From IMG/VR virus record IMGVR_UViG_2541047850_000006, positions 1 to 42,657 of that record: a stretch of DNA of 42,657 nt; one strand, written 5' to 3'. Source of the DNA: a virus (lineage: Duplodnaviria; Heunggongvirae; Uroviricota; Caudoviricetes). Of this stretch, positions 2,636 to 38,943 are shown piece after piece. The position numbers were made by a program, and so were the translations under genes. Positions within the stretch are counted from its first letter, which is position 1, and each line of letters opens with the position of its first letter. Below the pieces are notes generated by a model. That model made no database searches and was not told the DNA's origin. It was given only the letters and a program-made list of their open reading frames with translations.

Positions 2636-3889
2636 TTATGATAGAGCCTTAATGCCCAAAACCTTGCTTTGTAACTCCAACTGCTTGGTATACGGTTTTG
2701 CCCGATAATAGGCTTTGATAATTTGTTCTGGCGTTGCACCGCCCGGGTCGAGTCCTTCCTCACCCAAACACGCAACTTTGACATTAAGACCGATACTGGT
2801 CAGTCGCCTAGCTGCGGGCATAGTGTTGCGTATAGCTTGCTTTTCACTATCCCACATCATGATCACATTACGTAACCCACGCGCCTTGAGCGTCAGGAAC
2901 GCGCCTAACTGATCTTCTGCATCCTGAGTGGTGTTGCCAGATAGATGCATCCCGAACGTTCCTATTGGTTCCACGTAATCACGTAATGTTTCTTCATCAA
3001 AAATAGCTCGTTTAACCCCCATAACATCGAACGCCCCCTCACAGACAACTACAGTCTGTTTGCCGACCGCATTATGGCCGTTGTAGAGAAACTTACCTGA
3101 AGCTGGAAGTTGCATAGGAAAGAGGTAGCGGCGTTCTGCTGTACCGGTAATGTCTCGTCCCTGAAATGTCTTCATTACCCCATCCAGATCGTAAATCGGT
3201 ATCAGTATTCGCATATCGAATATCTGCCCTTTAACCTGATCTGTATACGGATCTACATAAGCGTGCTTGCCTTCGACGCAGTATCGTAGGTCAAAATACT
3301 TTGCCATTTCAGGTGATATGTTTCGTTCAACCAGATAGTCTGGAAGACGGCCATCTATAGGAAGCTCGTAATGACGAGGGAGTGCAACTGGCCCCTCTAA
3401 CTCGACTGTGCTTGCAAGCACTAGCTCTTCTTTCTTTGGTGCCCACCCCTGGGAAAGAAGGGCGTTCTGCACATATTCCTCGAACTGTCGTCGTGATTTA
3501 CCGCTGTAGTGCTTGAGGAAGACCAGCTTATTGAACTGAATCTCTTCGGGATGATCACCAGCGAAGCATTTGCCGACGCCACTGGTCAGATTGAAATATA
3601 CCTTCCAGTTGGAGCTGCCGCATACCGGACACTCCTTGATATTCACTTCACGACCGCGAGCACTCACACCTCCACGTCGATAAACGATACCTTCAGTATC
3701 CAACCATTGTTCAAAATCTAATTCGGCAATTAGCTCTTTCAGCTCGCTCACGATAATTCCACTTTTAACAGGCAATATTATGACCAACATAAATGTTGAT
3801 ATAACATAAAGGCTCATGTGTTTTTCTTTTGTGGTTTGGCAAAAGAAAAGTTGTTTCACCAATGAATCAAGCGTGGAGGTGTTCTCCAC
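2636..3889 (-). CDS. DNA primase (zinc-binding domain + TOPRIM), T7 gp4 primase-domain-like; N-terminus probably over-extended (likely ATG near 3817)
   Basis: CPVCGSS...C..GDH zinc-ribbon-like motif; VVVCEGAFDVMG and MMWDSEKQA TOPRIM-like acidic motifs; the track start is GTG inside a hairpin at 3870-3892. Confidence 0.75.
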   Translation of the reverse strand: MENTSTLDSLVKQLFFCQTTKEKHMSLYVISTFMLVIILPVKSGIIVSELKELIAELDFEQWLDTEGIVYRRGGVSARGREVNIKECPVCGSSNWKVYFNLTSGVGKCFAGDHPEEIQFNKLVFLKHYSGKSRRQFEEYVQNALLSQGWAPKKEELVLASTVELEGPVALPRHYELPIDGRLPDYLVERNISPEMAKYFDLRYCVEGKHAYVDPYTDQVKGQIFDMRILIPIYDLDGVMKTFQGRDITGTAERRYLFPMQLPASGKFLYNGHNAVGKQTVVVCEGAFDVMGVKRAIFDEETLRDYVEPIGTFGMHLSGNTTQDAEDQLGAFLTLKARGLRNVIMMWDSEKQAIRNTMPAARRLTSIGLNVKVACLGEEGLDPGGATPEQIIKAYYRAKPYTKQLELQSKVLGIKALS

Positions 3890-5239: not shown

Positions 5240-5282
5240 GTGCTTTCCTTTGTTTTTTAAACAAATTGTTTTCTAGTATTAG

Positions 5283-6032
5283 TTAATTATATAGGGGATC
5301 AATAAACCACCGTGCTTCTTCCAGTTCTTCTGGAAAGTGGGCGGAAATAAGGCGCTCTGGAACGATTTCCATTAGCCAGATAGCGGAGAAAATTGCGCGT
5401 ATGCGCTTGCTGCGAGGGATGGTGCGCAAACGCTCCAGAATCCACTCAAAATAGCTTTCCTGAATCGGGTTGAACTGCATGTCTCCCATATGCTTAAAGC
5501 TAACCAGAGAGTCATCCAGACGGGTTGTTGCGCGTCTGGCTAATTTCTCTTCAAATATCTCAATCAGTTCTGGCTGCCATAAATGCTGCGGACGCGGCAG
5601 CTTGTCCCACAGACGTCGTGCAGCTGCGGAAAGCACGGTGGAGATAAAGTAGTCGTATGAGCAACAATAGCGGTCAGCAAACTGGCGTGCTTTCCATAAC
5701 GACGTTTTATTGGCAGTCGACAACTCCTGATAAGGCAGGCGTTTTAACCCGGTGGTGAACGGAGCTGTTTCAAAGTGTTCGCGACCGTGCGTCAGCATGA
5801 TATTTGAGTACTGACGTTTGTATGCCTCCGTAAAAAGACAGGTGGCCATGAGAGGATGCATGTCGCAGTAATCAAACCACTTCGTCTCGAAGAGTTCAGC
5901 CTCGTCTTTACAGCGCGACAAACCAATGTTTTCAGCGACCCACTTGTCCATAACAGCGGTATTCCACTCTGTCATGAAGTCGTACTGGTCGTTGTCGATG
6001 GTATCGAAAAAGATTTGGCTCATGTGGCTCAC
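5283..6032 (-). CDS. Hypothetical protein (about 246 aa from ATG at ~6023)
   Basis: Track ORF (GTG start); an in-frame ATG 9 nt downstream has an AGGTGA SD; a palindromic motif overlaps the start region (6036-6055). Confidence 0.5.
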   Translation of the reverse strand: MSHMSQIFFDTIDNDQYDFMTEWNTAVMDKWVAENIGLSRCKDEAELFETKWFDYCDMHPLMATCLFTEAYKRQYSNIMLTHGREHFETAPFTTGLKRLPYQELSTANKTSLWKARQFADRYCCSYDYFISTVLSAAARRLWDKLPRPQHLWQPELIEIFEEKLARRATTRLDDSLVSFKHMGDMQFNPIQESYFEWILERLRTIPRSKRIRAIFSAIWLMEIVPERLISAHFPEELEEARWFIDPLYN

Positions 6033-6137
6033 CTGGTAGGTAGTTACTTACTTATTACAATGAGCGGATGATAGCGACTGGTGGCAGTTTTTGGAAGTGG
6101 AAACGAAAGGGAGTTGTTCTGGTTGTGTCTTTTAAAA

Positions 6138-6196
6138 GACCTGCTTCTGTATATATTTAATAAGTTACTTATTATTTATATATACGGAAGCAGGCA
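6138..6196. repeat. Long near-perfect palindrome A (about 17-bp arms CCTGCTTCTGTATATAT / ATATATACGGAAGCAGG around an AT-rich core AATAAGTTACTTATT); copy 1 of 2
   Basis: Read directly; a second copy in inverted orientation at 35661-35716. Confidence 0.75.
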
Positions 6197-6309
6197 TACA
6201 TAACTTGTCGTCTTAGACGCCCAGAAGCTCTACACTTTGAGCCTGTTAAATTGATTAAAAACTTATGTGTAAAATAGAACGCATTAGTCAGTAGCTAAGA
6301 GATGCAATA

Positions 6310-7077
6310 ATGGACGATTTATCGGTATACGCGAGATCATTGGATAAGGCTAAATACTATGTTTACTGTCTCTATGATACAGAAGACAAGATGAAAAGAC
6401 CGTTTTACATAGGAAAAGGCAAATCGACTCGTTGTCTCGATCACATCAAGTATCCCGATGACTCTCCCAAATCCATGCGGATCAAAGAACTTTTGGCTAA
6501 TAAAAAATTAGGCATAGATATACTTCGTCATGGTATGGATGAAACCACAGCCAAACTTGTTGAGGCGACATGCATCGACCTTATGGGGGTCGGAGAGCTT
6601 ACGAATAAGGTTCGAGGAAGTGGTTCCATGATGGGCAGAATATCACTGGACGCCTACCATCACTTAGTGCTGCAAGAGGAAACTGAAATTGCTCCTGAGC
6701 ACGCCGGTCTTGCCTTCCTGCTAAACAGCACCTACAAGTCAGGAATGTCCGCTCTGGCATTATATGAAGCTACGCGTGGCGTATGGGCAAAGGTTCCAAG
6801 AGACGAGAATCTCAAATATGCCTACGCTACATATGGTGGGCTAATAATGGAAGTTTATCGGATTGAATGCTGGGTCAAAGCCGGTTCTCAGCAGTACTTT
6901 ACAAGGGATATAGCTCTTGGCCCCGACACAAAACGTTATGAATTTGTTGGCAGAATAGCCGATGAGCATATTAGAAAACTGTATGTAGGCAAATTAATCA
7001 AGAAGCCACCAAGCTACGGTAGCCCTTTTGTGAAGGTTGGAGTGGTTAGGACTGAACATAGTGTTAGCGCGGCATAA
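6310..7077 (+). CDS. GIY-YIG nuclease-domain protein (255 aa), stand-alone on the opposite strand
   Basis: N-terminal YYVYCLYD...PFYIGKGK...R..H and downstream Glu/Asn consistent with a GIY-YIG catalytic core; ATG start; followed by a strong terminator. Confidence 0.6.
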   Translation: MDDLSVYARSLDKAKYYVYCLYDTEDKMKRPFYIGKGKSTRCLDHIKYPDDSPKSMRIKELLANKKLGIDILRHGMDETTAKLVEATCIDLMGVGELTNKVRGSGSMMGRISLDAYHHLVLQEETEIAPEHAGLAFLLNSTYKSGMSALALYEATRGVWAKVPRDENLKYAYATYGGLIMEVYRIECWVKAGSQQYFTRDIALGPDTKRYEFVGRIADEHIRKLYVGKLIKKPPSYGSPFVKVGVVRTEHSVSAA

Positions 7078-7093
7078 AGCTGACACTGTAGTT

Positions 7094-7140
7094 ATGCATT
7101 GGCGCAATGTACGCGCCAATGCATGATTTTTAACCTTTTT
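7094..7140 (+). terminator. Rho-independent terminator (12-bp perfect stem ATGCATTGGCGC...GCGCCAATGCAT, then GATTTTTAACCTTTTTT)
   Basis: Inverted repeat plus T-tract read directly; sits between the convergent GIY-YIG and partition genes. Confidence 0.65.
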
Positions 7141-7489
7141 TCATCAACTCTCGTTTGATTTCATCGGTACGCATCGTGACATCGGCAGCTGTGATCGCCT
7201 CGTTCAGTTTCACGATGTCCTCGATTTCCTGCGGTGACTTCTCTGCCAGATGGAAAATGGCTGCGCGAATCACGTCAGAACGGGTGAACTTCTCGAAACG
7301 AGGGATGAACTTCATCATCTCCAGCAGTTCGAAGTATTCGTCTTCCAGTGACATTGTGCGGCTTTTAATTTTCTCTTTGCCACGAGTCGGGCGTCCCTGT
7401 GGTCTGACTGGTTGGCGCAAAGGAGTTGTGTTCTTAGCCGGTGCATCAGGCTCTTTGCGCTTTGCTAGGTCACCCATTTTCATGGACAT
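7130..7489 (-). CDS. ParG-like ribbon-helix-helix centromere-binding protein (partition adaptor)
   Basis: Basic disordered N-terminus followed by an RHH-like segment RTMSLEDEYFELLEMMKF...SDVIRAAIFHLAE; its start overlaps the stop of the upstream ParA gene by 1 nt. Confidence 0.55.
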   Translation of the reverse strand: MSMKMGDLAKRKEPDAPAKNTTPLRQPVRPQGRPTRGKEKIKSRTMSLEDEYFELLEMMKFIPRFEKFTRSDVIRAAIFHLAEKSPQEIEDIVKLNEAITAADVTMRTDEIKRELMKKG

Positions 7490-8157: not shown

Positions 8158-8290
8158 TGGAGAGTTCCCTTTGCGTATATAATTATCGTCTGAAACAACT
8201 TGTTTTCTTATATGTGATATAGCCTAAATGCCTACGGCTGCTGTGTAAAGGTTTAATGATAGGTACATAGATTTGGTAAGGACTTAATAA

Positions 8291-8316
8291 CAAAAAACCC
8301 GCCGTAGCGGGTTTAG
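8291..8316 (-). terminator. Rho-independent terminator (AACCCGC-CGTA-GCGGGTT followed by a T-tract on the minus strand)
   Basis: Read directly; immediately downstream of the stop of gene 8320..9096. Confidence 0.7.
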
Positions 8317-8319
8317 GAA

Positions 8320-9096
8320 TTAGTGGTTGGTAAACCTGGCATCAAATGTTGTAACGCCCACTTCAATGTGGCGGTCTTCTTTGGAGATGATGGTGAGAAT
8401 CTGACTAGATGGGTCTATGCTGACAGCCATAGGGTTCCAGTGACGTAACTGAGCCTCTCTGTTCAATAGCAGCGCATCCCACGGTTTGACGCCATTCTGC
8501 CCAATACCACCCTCAACAAGGACATCTATAAATTCTTTATTTAAATTGTCATAGATTTGGACACGCCCGACCAGAAGCATACCGACCGCCCAAATTCTGG
8601 CACCGTAAACCGTCTGATGGTCATCACATACCACATGGTCATGCCAATTGAGAAGGAAATTGTAAACTCTTCTAGCAAGTCCCTTTTGTTCCTTTGAAGG
8701 GGTTACAAATGCCCCTTTGATCTGGACACCAAGGTGAGAGCCTTTTTGTGAGCGAAACTGGAAACGCTTGTAGACGAACCTGGCAATCTGAATGCCGTCA
8801 TCATCTTCTTGTTCATCACCAACTAACTCACGAACACTATGAACTATCTCTGCTTCTGAATACCCCTGCTCGTCAAGATCCATTGCATGTTCTTGAAGCC
8901 AATCTGCATCATGGTCGCCTACAAATGACACTGTCAAACAGTAATCATAATTAGACCCGATCAAAGACCACTCTGTGAGCCGTAAAACAGAAAAATCAGA
9001 GTTAACCATGTAGCCAACTCTGATTTTCTCTCTTGCTTCACATTCAGGGAAATCTGACAGTACTTTTGAATACTCTGCTATGAATGATGGTGACAT
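8320..9096 (-). CDS. Hypothetical protein (258 aa)
   Basis: Track ORF, ATG start abutting the stop of 9097..9495; has its own terminator; no confident domain (a GDHDADW segment is only weakly suggestive). Confidence 0.5.
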   Translation of the reverse strand: MSPSFIAEYSKVLSDFPECEAREKIRVGYMVNSDFSVLRLTEWSLIGSNYDYCLTVSFVGDHDADWLQEHAMDLDEQGYSEAEIVHSVRELVGDEQEDDDGIQIARFVYKRFQFRSQKGSHLGVQIKGAFVTPSKEQKGLARRVYNFLLNWHDHVVCDDHQTVYGARIWAVGMLLVGRVQIYDNLNKEFIDVLVEGGIGQNGVKPWDALLLNREAQLRHWNPMAVSIDPSSQILTIISKEDRHIEVGVTTFDARFTNH

Positions 9097-27506: not shown

Positions 27507-27555
27507 TGATGGAAACTCCTTTTTCCGTTAATTTCACGCATTCATTGCGCTATAT

Positions 27556-27575
27556 TTAAGTATATACTTACCTAT
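27556..27575. promoter_or_regulatory. 20-bp palindromic motif TTAAGTA-TATACT-TACCTAT upstream of the major tail gene
   Basis: Same half-site architecture as 11165-11184. Confidence 0.5.
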
Positions 27576-30209: not shown

Positions 30210-31130
30210 TTAAATTTTTACATTGTTCAGTGCAGCGATAGCCTTATCGTGCTTATTCGCCAGAGAGCAGTACCATTTCACACGAGTACGTACTGCATCT
30301 TTATTCTGTACCGTGCCAATGTTCTCCACAACGATACCAGCATTGTCACCGCCATACAGACCGGTAAGACCATTTTCTTCTGACAAATGCAGACAATAAA
30401 TGTTAGCAGTACCTTCCTGGCCTTCCGTTTTCTGCTCTGAACCTTCAGTAACTTTAACCCCATTTTTAGGAATGAAGTCGTTAACAATAAATGGAATACC
30501 ATTATGGCACAGCATAGGACGACCGAAGTTCTCCATCATGATTTCAGACGGGCCTACGTTTACTGTACGCAGCAGCGCACGGTAAGCACGCAGGTGCTCT
30601 GAACGCATCATGATGCAGTCAGCGCCCAAATCTTTCACCGCATCGACCAGCTCGTCGAACATAGAGAAAGTCATAGATGCACCAGCAATGTCGATCTTCT
30701 GATCTTTGTGCATCAGACGCGGAATACCATCAAACGCTTTGGTATTAGTTTCAGAATTACCCAAGATCAGATTTCGACGGAATGCACGAGCCAGACCTTT
30801 CACTTTCTGGCGAACCTGAACAGCCAACTGATTGTTAGTATCGGACATAGTTGTTGCCAAGAATTTATCAACGTCAACGTCACCAGCCAGAATACGCAGT
30901 TTTGCAACATGTTCGCTGAATGTTGCTGCGCCTTCCGCAATAGTATCGTTTACATCAATAAAGGTCGCTTCACTAAGCGTTGCTTCGCGATTATAAAGAT
31001 ATGCCTTCGAGTTAATCTTCATAAAAGGCAGAATCGCAAACAGGTCATCGCGATCGATGATAGTTTCGATCACACCCTGTTCAAGTTCATTATTGGATAG
31101 CTTTTCAGCTTCTTCACGCAGTAATGGCAT
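30210..31130 (-). CDS. Major capsid protein candidate (306 aa)
   Basis: Position after portal and scaffold; followed by the strongest terminator in the window (typical of highly expressed capsid genes); sequence family not verified. Confidence 0.6.
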   Translation of the reverse strand: MPLLREEAEKLSNNELEQGVIETIIDRDDLFAILPFMKINSKAYLYNREATLSEATFIDVNDTIAEGAATFSEHVAKLRILAGDVDVDKFLATTMSDTNNQLAVQVRQKVKGLARAFRRNLILGNSETNTKAFDGIPRLMHKDQKIDIAGASMTFSMFDELVDAVKDLGADCIMMRSEHLRAYRALLRTVNVGPSEIMMENFGRPMLCHNGIPFIVNDFIPKNGVKVTEGSEQKTEGQEGTANIYCLHLSEENGLTGLYGGDNAGIVVENIGTVQNKDAVRTRVKWYCSLANKHDKAIAALNNVKI

Positions 31131-32106: not shown

Positions 32107-33663
32107 TTAATTTTGTCCGCTTTCTTGGACAGCACTGCGATCATAGGTAAGTACAGACTTATTTTCAAGAGCATTAAGATCATTTTTTGGCGGAAATTTC
32201 AAGAGATCTTTATCAAATTCCTTTTTCATCGCTTCAGTGATATTAGGGAAAATCTTCTCAATCAGCATTTCCATCTGCTGACGACGTACAGAGTCCGGTG
32301 CCTGAAGTAACGATAGTTTCTCCGCAACAGAAAATTCATCAGTAAGCCCGCGAATATCAAAACTTTCTGGATATGCTATTAGAGAGTGATCTTCGTCCAG
32401 ATCTACCCCCATCCATTTAGCAACCAGTTGCATGATTTGGCGTTCAGCCCTTTCAAGACGATCTGCTTTTGTGACAAGCAAGCTATTTACACGCTGGAAG
32501 TCATACATTTTTGCAGCACCAGATGAATTATCTATTCCCTGTGCGTTGTCCTGCTTCGTTCGCTCGCCAGCTACACCAACTGAATGGTAGATTTCGTTAA
32601 TCACCGTCTTAATCGTAGTGATGATCATCTGAGCTTGTTTAGGGTCTGGTGATAAATAAAACGGCTGGTTTCCACCTTCAGAATCGTAGGTAAAGACACG
32701 TTTTGTCCCCATTTCAAGAACTTTAGTGTGATTATCATCACCAGGTAAAAGTGACTGCACCGGTATGGCCAACTGGCTAAATGTCTGATCCTGAATAATG
32801 GCATCAAGGTTTGACAGATAGTTTGCAACCGCACGATCAAGATAAGCGATATCATCGATCAACGATGGGCTGAAATACGGTGATTCACTTTCTCCAATAC
32901 AATCAACAGGAAACACAGGAACTACGCCCAGATTATGCTCGTCGCTATCCTCTAAAATAACTTTTGCCTGACGACGAGCTGCTCCACTAGCGCCCTTCTT
33001 CACTTCCTCACGGAACAGATACCACTCGTTTTGTGTCCAAAGACGATAACGTTGGTATTCCTGACCTGTAGAAGTAAAAGGATCTGCGTCATCACGAGCG
33101 ACTTCCACAATTAACGCCCATAACATATTCCCGTCGTCGTCCCATGCCACATCCAGCATTTGCTGCGGTGAAATCCAGTAGGCGTAGGCACGAGCATCTT
33201 TCTTTTTCTCGTCAGCGACTGATTCAACATCACCACTCATCGTGCTATCGACAACAACCCAGATACGACCGTATATAGACGATTGCAAATCAATCGCGGC
33301 CATAAATGAATCAATAGAGGCATTCTGGCGAGTCGCTCGTTTCCAGAAATTGCGGATCTGCTCTGGCGATTCTTCAATATTTCGATGAATATCTTCTTTA
33401 AAAAGATACTTGTTAATGAGATTTACCACTTCACGGGTGTGGTTGAATCGATAAGCACGCTCAACTCGCTCCTTAAATTCCTGGTCGCCCTCTTTAAAGT
33501 ACCTAAATATATTTTCGCTAAACCAACCACGCCCGCCAGCATAGGTGCTAGCGAGAAAGTCCCAATGTTCTTTTTTCTTTTCGTATTCCGGGTGGCGTCG
33601 CGCCACCAGATCCTTAATTTGTTTGTCGTTCAATTCCATTTGAATACCCTTAAATAACCACAC
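32107..33663 (-). CDS. Portal protein candidate (518 aa)
   Basis: Size and position directly downstream of the large terminase. Confidence 0.7.
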   Translation of the reverse strand: MWLFKGIQMELNDKQIKDLVARRHPEYEKKKEHWDFLASTYAGGRGWFSENIFRYFKEGDQEFKERVERAYRFNHTREVVNLINKYLFKEDIHRNIEESPEQIRNFWKRATRQNASIDSFMAAIDLQSSIYGRIWVVVDSTMSGDVESVADEKKKDARAYAYWISPQQMLDVAWDDDGNMLWALIVEVARDDADPFTSTGQEYQRYRLWTQNEWYLFREEVKKGASGAARRQAKVILEDSDEHNLGVVPVFPVDCIGESESPYFSPSLIDDIAYLDRAVANYLSNLDAIIQDQTFSQLAIPVQSLLPGDDNHTKVLEMGTKRVFTYDSEGGNQPFYLSPDPKQAQMIITTIKTVINEIYHSVGVAGERTKQDNAQGIDNSSGAAKMYDFQRVNSLLVTKADRLERAERQIMQLVAKWMGVDLDEDHSLIAYPESFDIRGLTDEFSVAEKLSLLQAPDSVRRQQMEMLIEKIFPNITEAMKKEFDKDLLKFPPKNDLNALENKSVLTYDRSAVQESGQN

Positions 33664-33665
33664 AC

Positions 33666-34922
33666 CTATCTCGAACCACCAAGAATAACACGGTTTTTTA
33701 CTGGATACCTACGATGTACTGGGTAGCCCAATGCGTCTGCACTATGCTCAATGCCACCTGTCTTATCCATATCTCGTGTTCCAGGCTTGTAGATGACCTT
33801 TTCCAGCGAATCAATCAAATGCTTGCATTTCGGATCGATATACAGCCTGATATCCCCAGATGCGGTCATCAGCATTCGGTTAACTGCATTAACACGATCC
33901 GCAATTGGCGGGTGTTTTTTTGAATAATCGACACGCAAGAATCCCTTCTCTTTGAATATGTCGACGTCAGACTCACCGCGAGCATGTTGACGATAAGCAC
34001 CAGCCGGAGCAGGAAATACCGTTATCTGTGATTTCCATCGCCAGAAACGTCTCTCCAGCTCATCACACACTTCTGCCGTGTTAGAGGAAAAGAGCACCAA
34101 TTCATCAATTGCCCATAGCTCACCGTTTGGCTGAGGTTGCAAAATTACGGAAGACATCGGGTCAATGTTGAAGTCCTGCCCTACCCATATAGGCAACCGA
34201 GGGTTGAACTGAAGCGGTTTTACATGCACGTTACGATCGAACGGGTAGTAAACGCGCCCGGACATGTTCTCAAAGCTGGCTAGGTACTCCTGAGCGAACG
34301 ATTTCGGGTCCATATCGTTCTTAGCAGCTTCAATTTCCGCCGTAGGTACGAACGGAGAATCGGCAGTTACAAACTGCCAGCTTTTCCACTGTCCCTTTCT
34401 TTGCAGCTCTACGTTCTGGCCTATAGTCCACAGTTTGTGAAATTCCGAGAAGCCTTTTGGCGTACCAATGATCAGTGCACCGCCACGTGTCGATGAAAGA
34501 GTAGGTCGTAACACCTTGTACCAGGTGTCAGCCTTCATATCCTGAAATTCATCAAGAACTACAAAATGCAACGCTACGCCGCGCAGAGTGTCAGGCTTAT
34601 CAGCACCTTTGAGGGCGATCTCCGAACCGTTCTTCAACACGATTGTCATCGTGGTGTCGTTCTTTTTTCTAACCCACTTACGAGGCAGAACTTCCTGTAG
34701 ATCGTCCCACAAAATCTGGCGAGCCATCTGGTAAGTAGGAGCGACATACCAGACCCTTTGCTTTTTTTCCTTTGCCGCCGCACGAATAATAGTGGAGATC
34801 GACAACCGGGATTTTCCCCAGCGTCGACCAGCACAAACAACTTTAAATCGATGGGGAGACTGGAAGACTTTCATCTGTCCAGAATGCAGTTGCACAAGAC
34901 TGAGCGAGGACGGGATTGCCAT
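33666..34922 (-). CDS. Terminase large subunit
   Basis: Walker A-like VVCAGRRWGKS, Walker B-like VVLDEFQDM, C-terminal nuclease-size domain; overlaps the small-subunit stop. Confidence 0.8.
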   Translation of the reverse strand: MAIPSSLSLVQLHSGQMKVFQSPHRFKVVCAGRRWGKSRLSISTIIRAAAKEKKQRVWYVAPTYQMARQILWDDLQEVLPRKWVRKKNDTTMTIVLKNGSEIALKGADKPDTLRGVALHFVVLDEFQDMKADTWYKVLRPTLSSTRGGALIIGTPKGFSEFHKLWTIGQNVELQRKGQWKSWQFVTADSPFVPTAEIEAAKNDMDPKSFAQEYLASFENMSGRVYYPFDRNVHVKPLQFNPRLPIWVGQDFNIDPMSSVILQPQPNGELWAIDELVLFSSNTAEVCDELERRFWRWKSQITVFPAPAGAYRQHARGESDVDIFKEKGFLRVDYSKKHPPIADRVNAVNRMLMTASGDIRLYIDPKCKHLIDSLEKVIYKPGTRDMDKTGGIEHSADALGYPVHRRYPVKNRVILGGSR

Positions 34923-35554
34923 TATTCGTCCTCCCCTTCACTTCCATCATCTGTCGCATCAAATTCGCTTAGAGCTTCTTCTTCCAACGTCTCAAGCAAT
35001 TCGTCATCGATGATTTCAGGCTCGTCGTCTTCCTGACGTAATTTCGCCACCTGGGAAGGCGTAAGTTCGCCAAATACCAGGTTCGGAATTTCTTCCTCGT
35101 CATTTTCTGCATGATCCATACCCAACGCTTTGGACGAAACTTCAAAGCATTTTGCAAGGGTATTACTTGCTCTCTGTAAGCTCTTGAGAGAATCCTCAAT
35201 CACCCCTAAAGGCTTACCCTCACGTTTGGCCGTAGTGACTTCGACCATCACCATCTGCCCCAACGCATACGCCCAGCCGTCATAACGTGTACGACGTTCT
35301 TCTATCTTTTCCGCACGGGCTTTAGCGCGAAGCTCTGCGTCAGATTTAAGAGACTCACGAACCATCTTCCCAACAGAGTCCGCGCCTTTCTCTAATCCTC
35401 GCTTTTTGAAATGTCTGGAGAGTGTTTCACGACGAATGCCGTACTCTTCCTCCAGCTTTGAGAGTGTATATTCGCCTGACGTCCATTTGGCTTCAGCTTC
35501 GGCCCACTCCGCTGGTGTCAGGCGAGTTTTTACCTCGTCTTTTTCGACAGTCAT
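34922..35554 (-). CDS. Terminase small subunit candidate (N-terminal HTH, acidic C-terminus)
   Basis: Position immediately upstream of TerL; HTH-like LSKLEEEYGIRRETLSRHFKKRG; GAGGGA SD. Confidence 0.55.
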   Translation of the reverse strand: MTVEKDEVKTRLTPAEWAEAEAKWTSGEYTLSKLEEEYGIRRETLSRHFKKRGLEKGADSVGKMVRESLKSDAELRAKARAEKIEERRTRYDGWAYALGQMVMVEVTTAKREGKPLGVIEDSLKSLQRASNTLAKCFEVSSKALGMDHAENDEEEIPNLVFGELTPSQVAKLRQEDDEPEIIDDELLETLEEEALSEFDATDDGSEGEDE

Positions 35555-35640
35555 AGATCCCTCTAAAACACACAGAGCGCGTCCATGCGCTCTAAAACAA
35601 CTTGTTTACTGCATCTACTAACCAACTTGTTTTCTGAGGT

Positions 35641-35738
35641 GTTTAATTAGGTCTGGGCATGTCTTATTAAGCCTGCTTCTGTATATATATTTAATAAGTT
35701 ATTTATTATTTATATACAGAAGCAGGTCTTTAAAATAA
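35641..35738. repeat. Long palindrome B (core 35661-35716 CCTGCTTCTGTATATA...TATATACAGAAGCAGG with extended imperfect symmetry GTCTGGG...CCCAGAC); copy 2 of 2, inverted relative to copy A
   Basis: Read directly; lies between the wHTH gene stop and the terS start region. Confidence 0.75.
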
Positions 35739-35751
35739 GCTCCCAGACCGA

Positions 35752-36018
35752 TTACATCACCAGTAACTTCGCTTTGGCTCGACCTAAAGTGGTTAACCCA
35801 AGAGTTCGGCGGTGATAGCGATTGTCACTGCGTTGGCGCGTATGCCCTTTCTCCACCAGCCCCTTTTTTATCAGAGCGCGAATTGAGAACTGGATACTTT
35901 GCTTTGTTGTCTTGTACGGCAAAACTTCAAGCAATTCGTCCAGATCAAGTAGATGACCTCGCTCATAACCGAGATTGAGCGTTTTGATGATGTCCTTTTG
36001 TTTATTGGTTAATGTCAT
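35752..36018 (-). CDS. Small winged-helix DNA-binding protein candidate (88 aa)
   Basis: Helix-turn-helix plus basic wing pattern ...TKQSIQFSIRALIKKGLVEKGHTRQRSDNRYHRR...; last gene of the coupled operon. Confidence 0.45.
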   Translation of the reverse strand: MTLTNKQKDIIKTLNLGYERGHLLDLDELLEVLPYKTTKQSIQFSIRALIKKGLVEKGHTRQRSDNRYHRRTLGLTTLGRAKAKLLVM

Positions 36019-36027
36019 GGCAAATCC

Positions 36028-36918
36028 TTATGCCGGTAAAGCAATTTCTAACGGTTTATCCAAAGGTTGTTTGTCGAATGCCAGCAGTGGCAGCGTGTCA
36101 GGCAGTCGACGACCAAAGTCAGGGTTTCGGTACACACCATACAACGGAGACGTAAAGCTCAGGTTGTGAATGTCCTTGAGCAGCTTCACAATGCTGGCCT
36201 CGTCCACCAGACTGTCGGCAATGTCCTGAATCGTCGTGCCACGATTCCGCCCAGCTTTTGCCAGGGAACTGTTCTTGTGGTAGTCCGCCACCAGATCACG
36301 CAGTGCACGGCGACGACGAGACTCGCTCATTGCGAACAACTCTTTGACGATCGCCTCGTTATCACCCGTGTCGGAACGGAAATGGCGCTGGAATACACGC
36401 AGTGCACTTTCATAGCTCTTCGGTCGCTCAGGGCGGATAAACTTAAACCCTGCTTTCATGGCGAAGGGATTGTATTTGCTCATCGAGGACTGGATCTCAA
36501 TGATTGGCCGGTCATGCATCCTGCTAACCAGGTTAATCATTCGATAAGAGACGCCTACGCCACGATACTGAGTATCCACAACTGAGCGACTGATCACCGC
36601 AAAGTTGTTATTCACGTACCGACCCCAGTACTGGTTAGCCACGGTGGTATTAGTGGTTGGTTTCAACTTAGGAAACATGCGGTGGCGAGGTGCCAACAGT
36701 AGTTTCGGGTAAGCCATAACCACGACGCCCACCAGACGATCATCAAGTTCGCAGCGATAGTAAGTTGGCGCGAAAGGTTTGCCGTCTGTTTTGTAGTGAA
36801 GCGACTTAAGAGCGTGCCAGTCCTCTACAGTTCCCTTTGTAACAGTCATTCGCTCCAGAAAGTCCAGATGACGCGGAAACTCTTCAGGGCGGTAGCGTTT
36901 AATGATGATGTCCGTCAT
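36028..36918 (-). CDS. GNAT-fold (acyl-CoA N-acyltransferase-like) protein with ~130-aa C-terminal extension
   Basis: QYRGVGVSYRM fits the GNAT Q/R-x-x-G-x-G/A acetyl-CoA loop, preceded by beta-strand-like YYRCELDDRLVGVVVMAY; its start overlaps the ATPase stop. Confidence 0.5.
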   Translation of the reverse strand: MTDIIIKRYRPEEFPRHLDFLERMTVTKGTVEDWHALKSLHYKTDGKPFAPTYYRCELDDRLVGVVVMAYPKLLLAPRHRMFPKLKPTTNTTVANQYWGRYVNNNFAVISRSVVDTQYRGVGVSYRMINLVSRMHDRPIIEIQSSMSKYNPFAMKAGFKFIRPERPKSYESALRVFQRHFRSDTGDNEAIVKELFAMSESRRRRALRDLVADYHKNSSLAKAGRNRGTTIQDIADSLVDEASIVKLLKDIHNLSFTSPLYGVYRNPDFGRRLPDTLPLLAFDKQPLDKPLEIALPA

Positions 36919-37580
36919 AAATGGACCTCATCATGACTACCATTGTGATATTCCACCTTCACGCGTTCTTTGTAGTGCTTGATGATCTGCATATCCGGGC
37001 GCAGCGCGTTCTTCAGGTCTTCGTGAGTCGTCGCCACCATTACCGTCGCACCAACCTTTCGAGCGGCACGCTGGAGGTTAGATGCCACAACCTGAGCGGT
37101 TACACGGTCTAGAACAGCACCGAACTCGTCAGCAGCCCACACTTTAGCGCCTGACTCAATCAGTTTGGCAATCTTGAGACGATATTTCTGGCCGTCTGAC
37201 ATTTCAGAAGGCTTGCGAACAAACAGATATGCATCGTTCAGACCAGCCATAGATAACAACCCAAGCGCATCGCTGGTCGTTTTGCCCAACTGATCGATGA
37301 CGTTAACCTCATTATCGAAGGTAAAATCATCGATGGAGGCTACAGACAGCCCTTCATCCTTCATCTGTCGTTGCAACTCGCGCAGCACAACGGATTTGCC
37401 GGAACCGGATTGGCCGGTGATGTACACCACATCGCCCTGCTTCACTTCCAGCTCCAGATTGTCGTAAAGCGTCCACTCTTTTTCGTCCAGGCCAAGCCCG
37501 AACGACTCAGCGATTTCCAACGTGCGCGTGGTTTTATTTACGTGTGTCTGAAACGATACGTTGATGTTGTATTTGCTCAT
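36915..37580 (-). CDS. Small stand-alone ABC-type ATPase (221 aa)
   Basis: Walker A GQSGSGKS, ABC signature LSDGQKYRL, Walker B VWAADEF, H-loop-like VMVATTHE; 4-nt overlaps with both neighbours. Confidence 0.7.
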   Translation of the reverse strand: MSKYNINVSFQTHVNKTTRTLEIAESFGLGLDEKEWTLYDNLELEVKQGDVVYITGQSGSGKSVVLRELQRQMKDEGLSVASIDDFTFDNEVNVIDQLGKTTSDALGLLSMAGLNDAYLFVRKPSEMSDGQKYRLKIAKLIESGAKVWAADEFGAVLDRVTAQVVASNLQRAARKVGATVMVATTHEDLKNALRPDMQIIKHYKERVKVEYHNGSHDEVHL

Positions 37581-38278
37581 GCAGCCATCTCCCCGGAAGA
37601 GATCTTCTCCGCATATGCCACAAATGCGTCTACCCCGCTTTCTCCCGTCATTTCTTCCATATGGGCAAGCAAATCACCAACAACAATGGCAGAGCCAGCA
37701 GGGAGAGTTTTAAAGCCCAATACGTCGACAACACGTACTTCTTCCGCTGCAACTTCACGACTGATCTCGGTGTGTTCATCCTTCTGTCGTTTAGTTTCTT
37801 CGCCAAGATCGATAACTAGCGAGTCGGTGTCCATTTCTTCTGTCATACTGCCAACGAGAACATTCAACTCACGCTCTTCAAAGCCGAAAACCTCGATATC
37901 GTCCAGAACAAGCGACTCAAGCTCTTTCTGTAGCTTAATTGCATCGTAATCAATGCTGGCAAGTCGGTTATCTTCAAGGCGCTTCGCACGAACCTCGTCA
38001 TCACTGAGATCATCGCGAACAATAACCGGTACACGCTCAAGTCCAGCAAAAATTGCAGCCTCACGGCGGCCGTGGCCAGTAATAATTACGTCGTTCTTAT
38101 CGACCGTAATTGGCTGGTCAAATCCGCGCTTTTTAATGGCTGCGGCCAGATCTCTGATCTGCTGTTCATCATGCTTTTTGGCATTCATCTCATAGGGAAT
38201 AAGATCTGCCGGGTCGCGATATACGATTTCAAACTTTTTGGTCATTACATACGCTCCTTGTAGTAGTCGACCAGCCAC
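37577..38278 (-). CDS. ParB/Srx-fold domain protein 2 (likely start at ATG near 38245)
   Basis: ParB N-terminal-domain-like ...VIITGHGRREAAIFAGLERVPV...; the ATG overlaps the stop of the upstream ParB-like gene. Confidence 0.65.
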   Translation of the reverse strand: MAGRLLQGAYVMTKKFEIVYRDPADLIPYEMNAKKHDEQQIRDLAAAIKKRGFDQPITVDKNDVIITGHGRREAAIFAGLERVPVIVRDDLSDDEVRAKRLEDNRLASIDYDAIKLQKELESLVLDDIEVFGFEERELNVLVGSMTEEMDTDSLVIDLGEETKRQKDEHTEISREVAAEEVRVVDVLGFKTLPAGSAIVVGDLLAHMEEMTGESGVDAFVAYAEKISSGEMAA

Positions 38279-38943
38279 ACCAGAGCCTCACCAGCGTTTT
38301 CCATTTCATTGCCAGTATTAATTGCCTGGTCTTTGATGATGTTTTTTATGGTTTCTGCAACGCGATCTGACGCATCGAAGGTTACTTTGAAGCGCATGGT
38401 CTGATGTTCCGCACCGACACGTTCGGTTTTCTCTCGTTTGTCGGTATCGACAGGCTCATCACTACCACGAGACAACGCCTCCAGTGCTTCAAGGTCAATT
38501 GCCGCCTCTTTTGCTAAAACCATCGAGATTTCGTCGTCATACGGGGCGATTTCAGACAGTTGATAGTCAAGTTCTGACTGAATTTCTTCAATGAAGCGTT
38601 GCAATGCGATTTGGTCGTCTTCACCGTATCGCTCGTTGTCCACCAGTGACATCTGTTTTGCCACGACATCGCTAATTTTGCCCACAGAAAGCACAGGAAC
38701 CGTTGAAATTCCTTGCTCAATAGCAGCACGCCAGCGATGTTCGCCGCCGAGGATTTCAAAAAATCCATCTTCAAGCTCACGAGCCAAAATTGGCTTAAAA
38801 AAGCCCAATTTTTCGATAGAACCTTTCAGTTTTTCGAAATTCTGCGCACCAACCGAATTGGTGTTCCAGGTATTCGGGCGAAGGTTGGCAACATCAACCT
38901 GCAAAATCGTGATTTTTACGTCCATTTTATTGCTACAATCCAC
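38245..38943 (-). CDS. ParB/Srx-fold domain protein 1 (likely start at ATG near 38925)
   Basis: ParB N-terminal-domain-like ...FEILGGEHRWRAAIEQGISTVPV...; first gene of the operon; palindromic motif immediately upstream. Confidence 0.65.
   Translation of the reverse strand: MDCSNKMDVKITILQVDVANLRPNTWNTNSVGAQNFEKLKGSIEKLGFFKPILARELEDGFFEILGGEHRWRAAIEQGISTVPVLSVGKISDVVAKQMSLVDNERYGEDDQIALQRFIEEIQSELDYQLSEIAPYDDEISMVLAKEAAIDLEALEALSRGSDEPVDTDKREKTERVGAEHQTMRFKVTFDASDRVAETIKNIIKDQAINTGNEMENAGEALVWLVDYYKERM

Follow-up and report, generated by a model that had tools for sequence, protein, structure and literature searches.

The terS locus and element B

The window (the whole stretch of DNA that was analysed, 42,657 nucleotides) was assigned to an SSU5-type phage-plasmid because its terS-upstream region is 100% identical to that of the Escherichia phage PhiR41_1 (circular record, 107,998 bp) and 77-98% identical to those of SSU5, Cyrano (pLF82) and Klebsiella phage-plasmids. 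Homologues of TerS were found in 955 PLSDB plasmids. All genes at this locus lie on the minus strand. terS (34922-35554, 210 aa) is the first gene of the virion block, directly upstream of the TerL gene and then the portal gene, and is separated by an intergenic gap (35555-35751) from an 88-aa gene (35752-36018) that closes the upstream block. TerS returned no match in Pfam or PDB sequence searches; the nearest PDB match of TerL was the ATPase domain of P74-26 TerL. The two proteins are 32% (TerS) and 55% (TerL) identical to their Nickievirus counterparts. A module spanning 32107-38943 is common to virulent Pseudomonas Nickievirus phages (compared with L132, L133 and L220) and encodes ParB-like nuclease(s), an ABC-type ATPase, an ATPase/acetyltransferase-like protein, a small winged-helix protein, TerS, TerL and the portal.

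The product of the 88-aa gene is predicted to fold as a winged helix of MarR-like topology (pLDDT 81). Foldseek searches with the predicted structure gave TM-scores of 0.70-0.76 to MepR, AdcR and MarR, and a PDB sequence search gave a weak match only.

The intergenic gap holds an extended dyad-symmetric element (element B, minus strand, 35651-35748, ∼98 bp) that consists of outer arms, spacers and a core. The outer arms are GTCTGGG (35651-35657) and CCCAGAC (35742-35748), the latter 3 nt from the stop codon of the winged-helix gene. The core palindrome (minus strand, 35672-35726) consists of arms CCTGCTTCYGTATATA and, between them, a centre that is AT-rich and likewise palindromic. In the window these arms are CCTGCTTCTGTATATATAT (35672-35690) and ATTTATATACAGAAGCAGG (35708-35726), which are 19 nt long, 95% complementary and separated by 17 nt; on the sense strand the base of the stem is CCUGC/GCAGG. 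The initial annotation had described a long palindrome between the stop of the winged-helix gene and the terS leader, with outer arms that also pair. Both the location and the pairing of the outer arms were borne out and the palindrome is real, but it had been placed 10-11 bp too far left.

Folding of the whole intergenic region as RNA gave -72.6 kcal/mol, against -38.6 ± 4.1 kcal/mol in shuffled sequences (z = -8.2), and folding of the 111-nt element as DNA gave z = -9.2. In neither case did any of 200 shuffles reach the same value. The window contains the 16-nt arm 4 times, where 0.28 occurrences are expected. No Rfam family matched the terS-upstream region at its gathering score, the sole hits being sub-threshold eukaryotic miRNA-hairpin models. 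A whole-window scan for inverted repeats also returned other short overlapping palindromes (14-20 nt) at 304-325, 27552-27575 and 30596-30625.

The terS leader

Between element B and terS lie two operator-like palindromes and a hairpin. The first palindrome (O1, 35620-35632, AACCAACTTGTTT) has a 6-1-6 form and is missing from the Klebsiella lineage through a 25-nt deletion; the second (O2, 35595-35607, AAACAACTTGTTT) is conserved in all lineages. The leader hairpin (minus strand, 35563-35594) consists of GAGCGCAUGGACGCGCUC followed by UGUGUGUUUUAG, ends 19 nt before the terS ATG and is terminator- or attenuator-like. It had first been noted as a 7-bp stem between direct repeats; it does lie between two copies of CTCTAAAACA (35561-35570 and 35590-35599), and the stem (35573-35594) has 8 pairs when read on the minus strand. 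A compensatory GAGCAC/GTGCTC change was found in the leader hairpin of two relatives (L169 and L170).

O1 and O2 belong to a genome-wide motif, AAACAAnTTGTTT, which is present at 18 places in PhiR41_1 and at 20 in SSU5, where ∼0.4 would be expected. The motif is a 6-1-6 palindrome with an oriented 5' extension, ACCAAnAAG, and most of its sites precede a start codon by 12-36 nt, the parA start among them. Its sites in the window are 5259-5271, 8193-8205, 35595-35607 and 35620-35632, and it is likewise found genome-wide in L006-L008. A reversed variant, GGCCTTAAACAAnTTGTTTTCTACC, occurs just after some stop codons. By analogy with stoperators or P1 C1 operators, AAACAAnTTGTTT looks like a candidate genome-wide operator.

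A hairpin with a T-tract 10-30 nt before the terS ATG was also located in Pseudomonas phage Nican01 and in Aeromonas and Acinetobacter plasmids whose TerS is ∼30% identical (L132, ∼3185-3215; L215, ∼1135-1175; L216, ∼1085-1125). The long palindrome is absent upstream of terS in these relatives. A terminator-like hairpin before terS is thus a deep feature of the group, pointing either to regulated read-through or to a promoter squeezed into the leader. As far as can be read from sequence, this suggests that the late operon may be entered by regulated read-through. In plasmids with a TerS of 59-65% identity the leader hairpin has no U-tract, while the diverged copy B carries T8 or T5.

Three copies of the palindrome

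Element B had been taken as particular to terS, which did not hold: a second copy lies in the window and a third elsewhere in the genome. The second (sister element A, minus strand, 6116-6227) has its core at 6140-6194 and outer arms GTTCTGG / CCAGAAG, and lies upstream of a 249-aa gene (5283-6032) and a helicase/primase block. The third, copy C, falls outside the window. The PhiR41_1 genome contains exactly three copies (C, 13435-87; B, 45582-636; A, 75115-69), and the three copies in SSU5 are syntenic with them. Scanning IMG/VR for the arm gave 92 palindromes that could be assigned to a context. The next gene is terS for 30 of them, the 249-aa gene ahead of the helicase and primase genes for 32, and, for the other 30, a 77-aa gene located after an adenine methyltransferase gene. 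A scan of genome contigs returned only 4 loci. The three copies mark the junctions of the virion/lysis, replication and accessory/early blocks.

In SSU5, 23-28 nt separate each copy from the stop codon before it, and 118-119 nt separate it from the ATG that follows. Across the relatives the distance from stop to element is usually 23-28 nt and that from element to start is always 95-122 nt. All copies have a single polarity relative to transcription. In PhiR41_1 and in the window copy A occupies a divergent intergenic region and has no co-directional upstream gene.

The left flank of copy A is mosaic among relatives. In the window the palindrome is adjoined on the opposite strand by a gene (6310-7077, plus strand) whose 255-aa product contains a LEM-3-like GIY-YIG nuclease domain; SSU5 and Cyrano carry a different, co-directional gene at this place.

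A MITE-like mobile element was considered and rejected on two grounds: the copies keep syntenic positions from genus to genus, and their cores are conserved although the spacers that lead to the outer arms vary from copy to copy. A protelomerase target of the N15 telRL type was likewise rejected on account of the three copies, the imperfect centre and the circular records (PhiR41_1 and PLSDB plasmids). Ungapped self-complementarity of the whole core is 36-42 of 53-55 positions.

The distribution of the copies, ∼30, 30 and 46 kb apart on a low-copy plasmid of ∼105 kb, would suit sites for plasmid maintenance or replication, either dispersed centromeres as in N15 or three lytic origins with an AT-rich unwinding centre. 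N15, a linear phage-plasmid, has four scattered inverted repeats, dispersed centromeres near late-gene control regions. Copy A lies ∼1 kb downstream of the parA operon, and each AT-rich centre is enclosed by conserved arms. However, all copies share one polarity and fixed distances to genes, and there is no inflection of GC skew at either copy in the window. The par locus encodes a small ParA (222 aa) and a 119-aa partner that matches no ParB HTH family, and the region upstream of parA carries the AAACAAnTTGTTT motif (AAACAAGTTGTTT) and not the palindrome. We therefore give this explanation a slight chance.

The gene for the 119-aa protein (7130-7489, minus strand) follows parA and has no Pfam match; the Cyrano annotation calls it a RelE/ParE toxin, other annotations a hypothetical protein. 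Its product may be the centromere-binding partner of the small ParA.

Packaging and the DNA ends

The initial annotation had proposed packaging recognition as one function of element B. Copy B lies 117 nt upstream of terS, which is the classical location of a cos or pac site, and its dyad symmetry recalls the cosN-type nicking site of lambda. Of the three copies, B alone has the leader repeats. Copy B could accordingly be read as a recognition and cleavage site (cos-like, or the boundary of a terminal repeat) at which terminase would cut the AT-rich centre, with specificity supplied by TerS sites in the leader that are absent at A and C. Moreover, the linear GenBank record of SSU5 starts and ends inside B, 8 nt from the centre, and its joined ends restore the element exactly.

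The records of SSU5 and Cyrano are both cut at about 35688/9 of the window, inside core B. The Cyrano record is not independent evidence for the ends, because the paper is a re-annotation of pLF82 only, without termini data, and the record starts one base from the start of SSU5. Assemblies commonly break at AT-rich hairpins as an artefact, and a search of the literature for the virion DNA ends of SSU5 found no statement. The start of the SSU5 reference record should therefore not be taken as a mapped cos site.

A cos site would be unique and adjacent to the terminase genes. Element B is adjacent to terS, yet each genome has three palindromes, two of them conserved at loci unrelated to terminase or packaging, and a unique cos or pac function of B is hard to reconcile with these further copies. 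The AAACAAnTTGTTT motif of the leader, at ∼20 sites per genome, is not specific to terS. Among 75 TerS-anchored IMG/VR loci few contig ends lie near terS and none lies in the palindrome. The nearest relative of TerL with a typed packaging mode is that of Nican01 (55% identity), which is reported to package with long direct terminal repeats, having been typed as 'DTR (long)' by PhageTerm (PMC11256456). The Nican01 record begins at terL by convention, and the position of the DTR is not readable from it. With the SSU5 record boundary as the sole link to a DNA end, packaging recognition at B is improbable.

Conservation of the arms

Forty-three unique terS-upstream sequences were aligned. These had been collected via TerS and were hence unselected for the palindrome. 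The conserved blocks are outer GGTCTGGGAG, the arms, the palindromic centre AATAAGTnACTTATTAA and outer CCCAGACC, followed on the leader side by one or two AAACAAnTTGTTT palindromes and then by the leader hairpin and UGUGUGUUUUAG immediately before the ribosome-binding site. All three copies keep near-invariant arms across E. coli, Salmonella, Klebsiella, Yersinia and Kluyvera, with drift in the centre and the flanks. The length of the core ranges from 52 to 57 bp, and slippage of a TA repeat shifts the spacing of the arms by ± 2 bp.

Changes within the arms (variants CATCTG, CGTCTG and CGAAAG) are not compensated in the partner arm. Covariation is seen instead in the outer arms, where two pairs change from G-C to A-U; examples are three relatives (L169, L170 and L195) with CAACTGGGAG / ACTCAATT. 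Mismatches of the arms on the sense strand comprise 24 G.U and 8 C.A, a bias that is not decisive because a T/G ancestor could account for the excess of G.U. Taken together, the near-invariant 16-nt arms and their uncompensated single-arm changes point to sequence-specific recognition, possibly at the level of DNA.

The intergenic regions of copies A and C were compared in the diverged K. michiganensis plasmid NZ_CP056140.1 (L217; 4083-4264 and 31569-31897). They share a lineage-specific stretch of ∼45 nt, AAAGATTTTAAAAAGAGCTTTAAATACTATCyrGAGCmAGGCT, which is followed by ordinary GC hairpin terminators. This suggests that copies may evolve in concert within a lineage, with partial support from a plasmid that is heavily IS-degraded.

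Such conservation would be expected of a DNA-level operator or promoter, at which a regulator of the phage-plasmid (a master repressor or a late activator) would bind arms AGAA-CCTGC-TTCYG and outer CTGGG/CCCAG and control the promoters of the three lytic blocks. The half-sites change independently, the distance to the next ATG is conserved, and concerted evolution, as indicated by the K. michiganensis variant shared between A and C, would also fit. Hexamers resembling a -35 box (TTTAAA, TTGAGA and TTAACA) abut the left arm in three lineages, and a conserved candidate promoter, TTCCAA-17-TATCAT/TATGAT, was read from the alignment after copy A. Against this, a consensus scan returned no convincing sigma-70 promoter at A and weak ones at B, the slippage of the TA repeat alters the spacing of the half-sites, and no binding protein was identified. 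The operator also leaves the U-tracts of A and C (see below) and the position after stop codons unexplained. We regard it as unlikely, though not negligible.

The winged-helix protein encoded beside B had been put forward as the binder. The fold is predicted as proposed, but the role is not favoured. Its recognition helix (helix 3) is unchanged in lineages with a diverged palindrome B, so that protein and arms do not co-vary, and homologues are encoded upstream of terS in Aeromonas and in Nickievirus, which have no palindrome. With the helix invariant and these homologues present, the protein is not a likely binder of the palindrome. An equally possible target is AAACAAnTTGTTT, a version of which (TACAAGTTGTT) is present upstream of terS in Nican01.

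Transcription across the copies

Tails of the hairpins were compared with the requirements of intrinsic termination. On the sense strand, the first 9 nt beyond the stem contain on average 5.9 T at copy A and 5.3 T at copy C (4.2 and 3.1 on the antisense strand), and 3.0 T at copy B in the lineage of the window (tail CUUAAUAAG). A stable GC-based hairpin is present (z of the RNA fold, -8.2 around B and -6.6 around copy A of Cyrano). A U-tract follows A and C and is lacking at B in the window lineage, and this copy therefore does not qualify as a canonical intrinsic terminator. Upstream of the parA promoter region, at ∼8285-8320 (minus strand), stands a canonical GC-rich terminator made up of CCCGCTACGGCGGG and then TTTTTTG; the genome thus also uses ordinary terminators, unlike the three long palindromes.

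Published transcript values for the LF82/Cyrano lysogen were then read across each copy. The parA operon, CYRAN_28-30, has 50, 89 and 55 normalised reads, and CYRAN_31, just downstream of copy A, has 6.2, the background being 9.8; across copy A the log2 value falls from 10.4 to 2.6 in condition B6 (PMC9928086, S1 Table). The fall across copy A in these published values is thus ∼9-fold and up to ∼200-fold. Palindrome A followed by UCUUUU is the only strong hairpin in the 193-nt gap between CYRAN_30 and CYRAN_31. Across B (CYRAN_123 to CYRAN_1) the drop is 2-3.5-fold with both flanks near background, so that it counts for little as evidence, and across C both flanks are at background in the lysogen (PMC9928086). 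CYRAN_123, the winged-helix gene upstream of B, is several-fold above its neighbour CYRAN_122 in several conditions (OV696614.1; PMC9928086, S1 Table), which hints at an internal promoter ahead of CYRAN_123.

The drop at A could reflect RNA processing or instability instead of termination. Processing or retro-regulation by RNase III, of the lambda sib or T7 intergenic type, would have an extended hairpin of ∼40 bp, formed in read-through RNA only, cleaved, so that the mRNAs of neighbouring blocks are separated or destabilised. The abrupt drop at A fits this as well as it fits termination, the sense stem exceeds 25 bp, the element stands a few nucleotides after stop codons, copy B is a long duplex without a U-tract, and the outer arms co-vary at two pairs. 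The covariation is sparse, however, and many single-arm changes are uncompensated; RNase III needs no such strict conservation of sequence. We consider this explanation highly improbable.

Discussion

The three palindromes are best read as long-hairpin terminators or insulators at module boundaries, with B and the terS leader forming part of a late-operon control region. We put the probability of this reading at a little under one half (about 0.45). On the sense strand the element would form a very stable stem-loop with a GC-rich base, which would end or insulate the transcription unit before it and so keep transcription of genes active in the plasmid-prophage state from running on into the lytic blocks. 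At A and C the hairpin would act with the U-rich tail of an intrinsic terminator, and B probably works jointly with the downstream terS leader. Element B, the two AAACAAnTTGTTT palindromes and the leader hairpin would then make up the control region that decides the entry of RNA polymerase into the late operon. It is implied that B itself stops or pauses transcription and that late expression would need antitermination, or a promoter between B and the leader hairpin.

A late-transcription control site had also been among the first proposals for this palindrome. It is compatible with the position at a block boundary, the operator-like palindromes, the leader hairpin and the sharp transcript boundary at sister copy A; the notion of a site peculiar to terS has to be given up, given the three copies.

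The strict conservation of the arms is the main point that the boundary hairpins do not explain. Near-invariant arms may reflect a common trans-acting factor or gene conversion. The conservation also leaves room for a single switch: the three hairpins would insulate the lytic blocks in the plasmid-prophage state, and on induction a phage-encoded factor would act on the invariant CCUGCUUCYG arms, as RNA or DNA, to give read-through over the whole 105-kb genome, with B perhaps also serving as the terminase end site. We judge this scheme decidedly unlikely.

Elements of this kind are known. What is new is the triplicated, sequence-conserved, ∼100-bp form at the module junctions of a phage-plasmid. 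Judged by title and abstract, none of the listed papers that mention SSU5 together with 'palindrom-' treats these elements, the matches being taken as the spelled-out name of CRISPR. Phage-plasmids of the SSU5/pHCM2 type are found widely among clinical E. coli, Klebsiella, Salmonella and Yersinia and carry resistance genes, and their lysis-lysogeny and late-gene control are essentially unstudied. The three-copy boundary element, the genome-wide 13-bp motif and the conserved terminator before terS are easily mutated handles with which to dissect how ∼100 kb of lytic genes is silenced during plasmid replication.

Comparison with known systems

Like the cos site of lambda (cosN dyad and cosB), element B is a dyad site ∼120 bp ahead of terS with short repeats after it, and one record is linearised inside the dyad. 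It differs in that the genome has further copies of the site, the repeats are a genome-wide motif and the sole typed member of the TerL family is reported as long-DTR.

As with IR1-IR4 of N15, one inverted repeat is present in several copies around a phage-plasmid, some of them beside control regions of lytic genes. The N15 sites are short SopB boxes that work with a type Ia ParB, whereas the element described here is ∼100 bp long and stands at gene boundaries, and the par locus looks like type Ib.

The AAACAAnTTGTTT motif is comparable with the stoperators of mycobacteriophages and the dispersed C1 operators of P1, with ∼20 short sites per genome, mostly in short gaps upstream of genes. The putative operator departs from them in its symmetric 6-1-6 form and in the oriented extension on its 5' side.

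In the pR'-qut-tR' region of lambda, as here, a regulatory leader with a terminator stands right ahead of the late or terminase operon, which implies regulated read-through. The sib/tI region of lambda shares with the present element an inner hairpin that can be extended by outer arms in read-through RNA only. The differences from lambda late control and sib are that no Q-like protein or strong sigma-70 late promoter was identified and that the element is triplicated; roles of antitermination and RNase III are putative here.

The element shares several features with phage insulators based on intrinsic terminators: a GC-based hairpin 23-28 nt after a stop codon, U-rich tails at A and C, and a drop in transcript at A. 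The element departs from the usual intrinsic terminator in its stem of 25 to 40 bp with an AU-rich top, in its extra outer arms and in the lack of a U-tract at B. Ordinary terminators are not conserved in sequence between loci, whereas the present element has a near-identical sequence at three loci and across genera.
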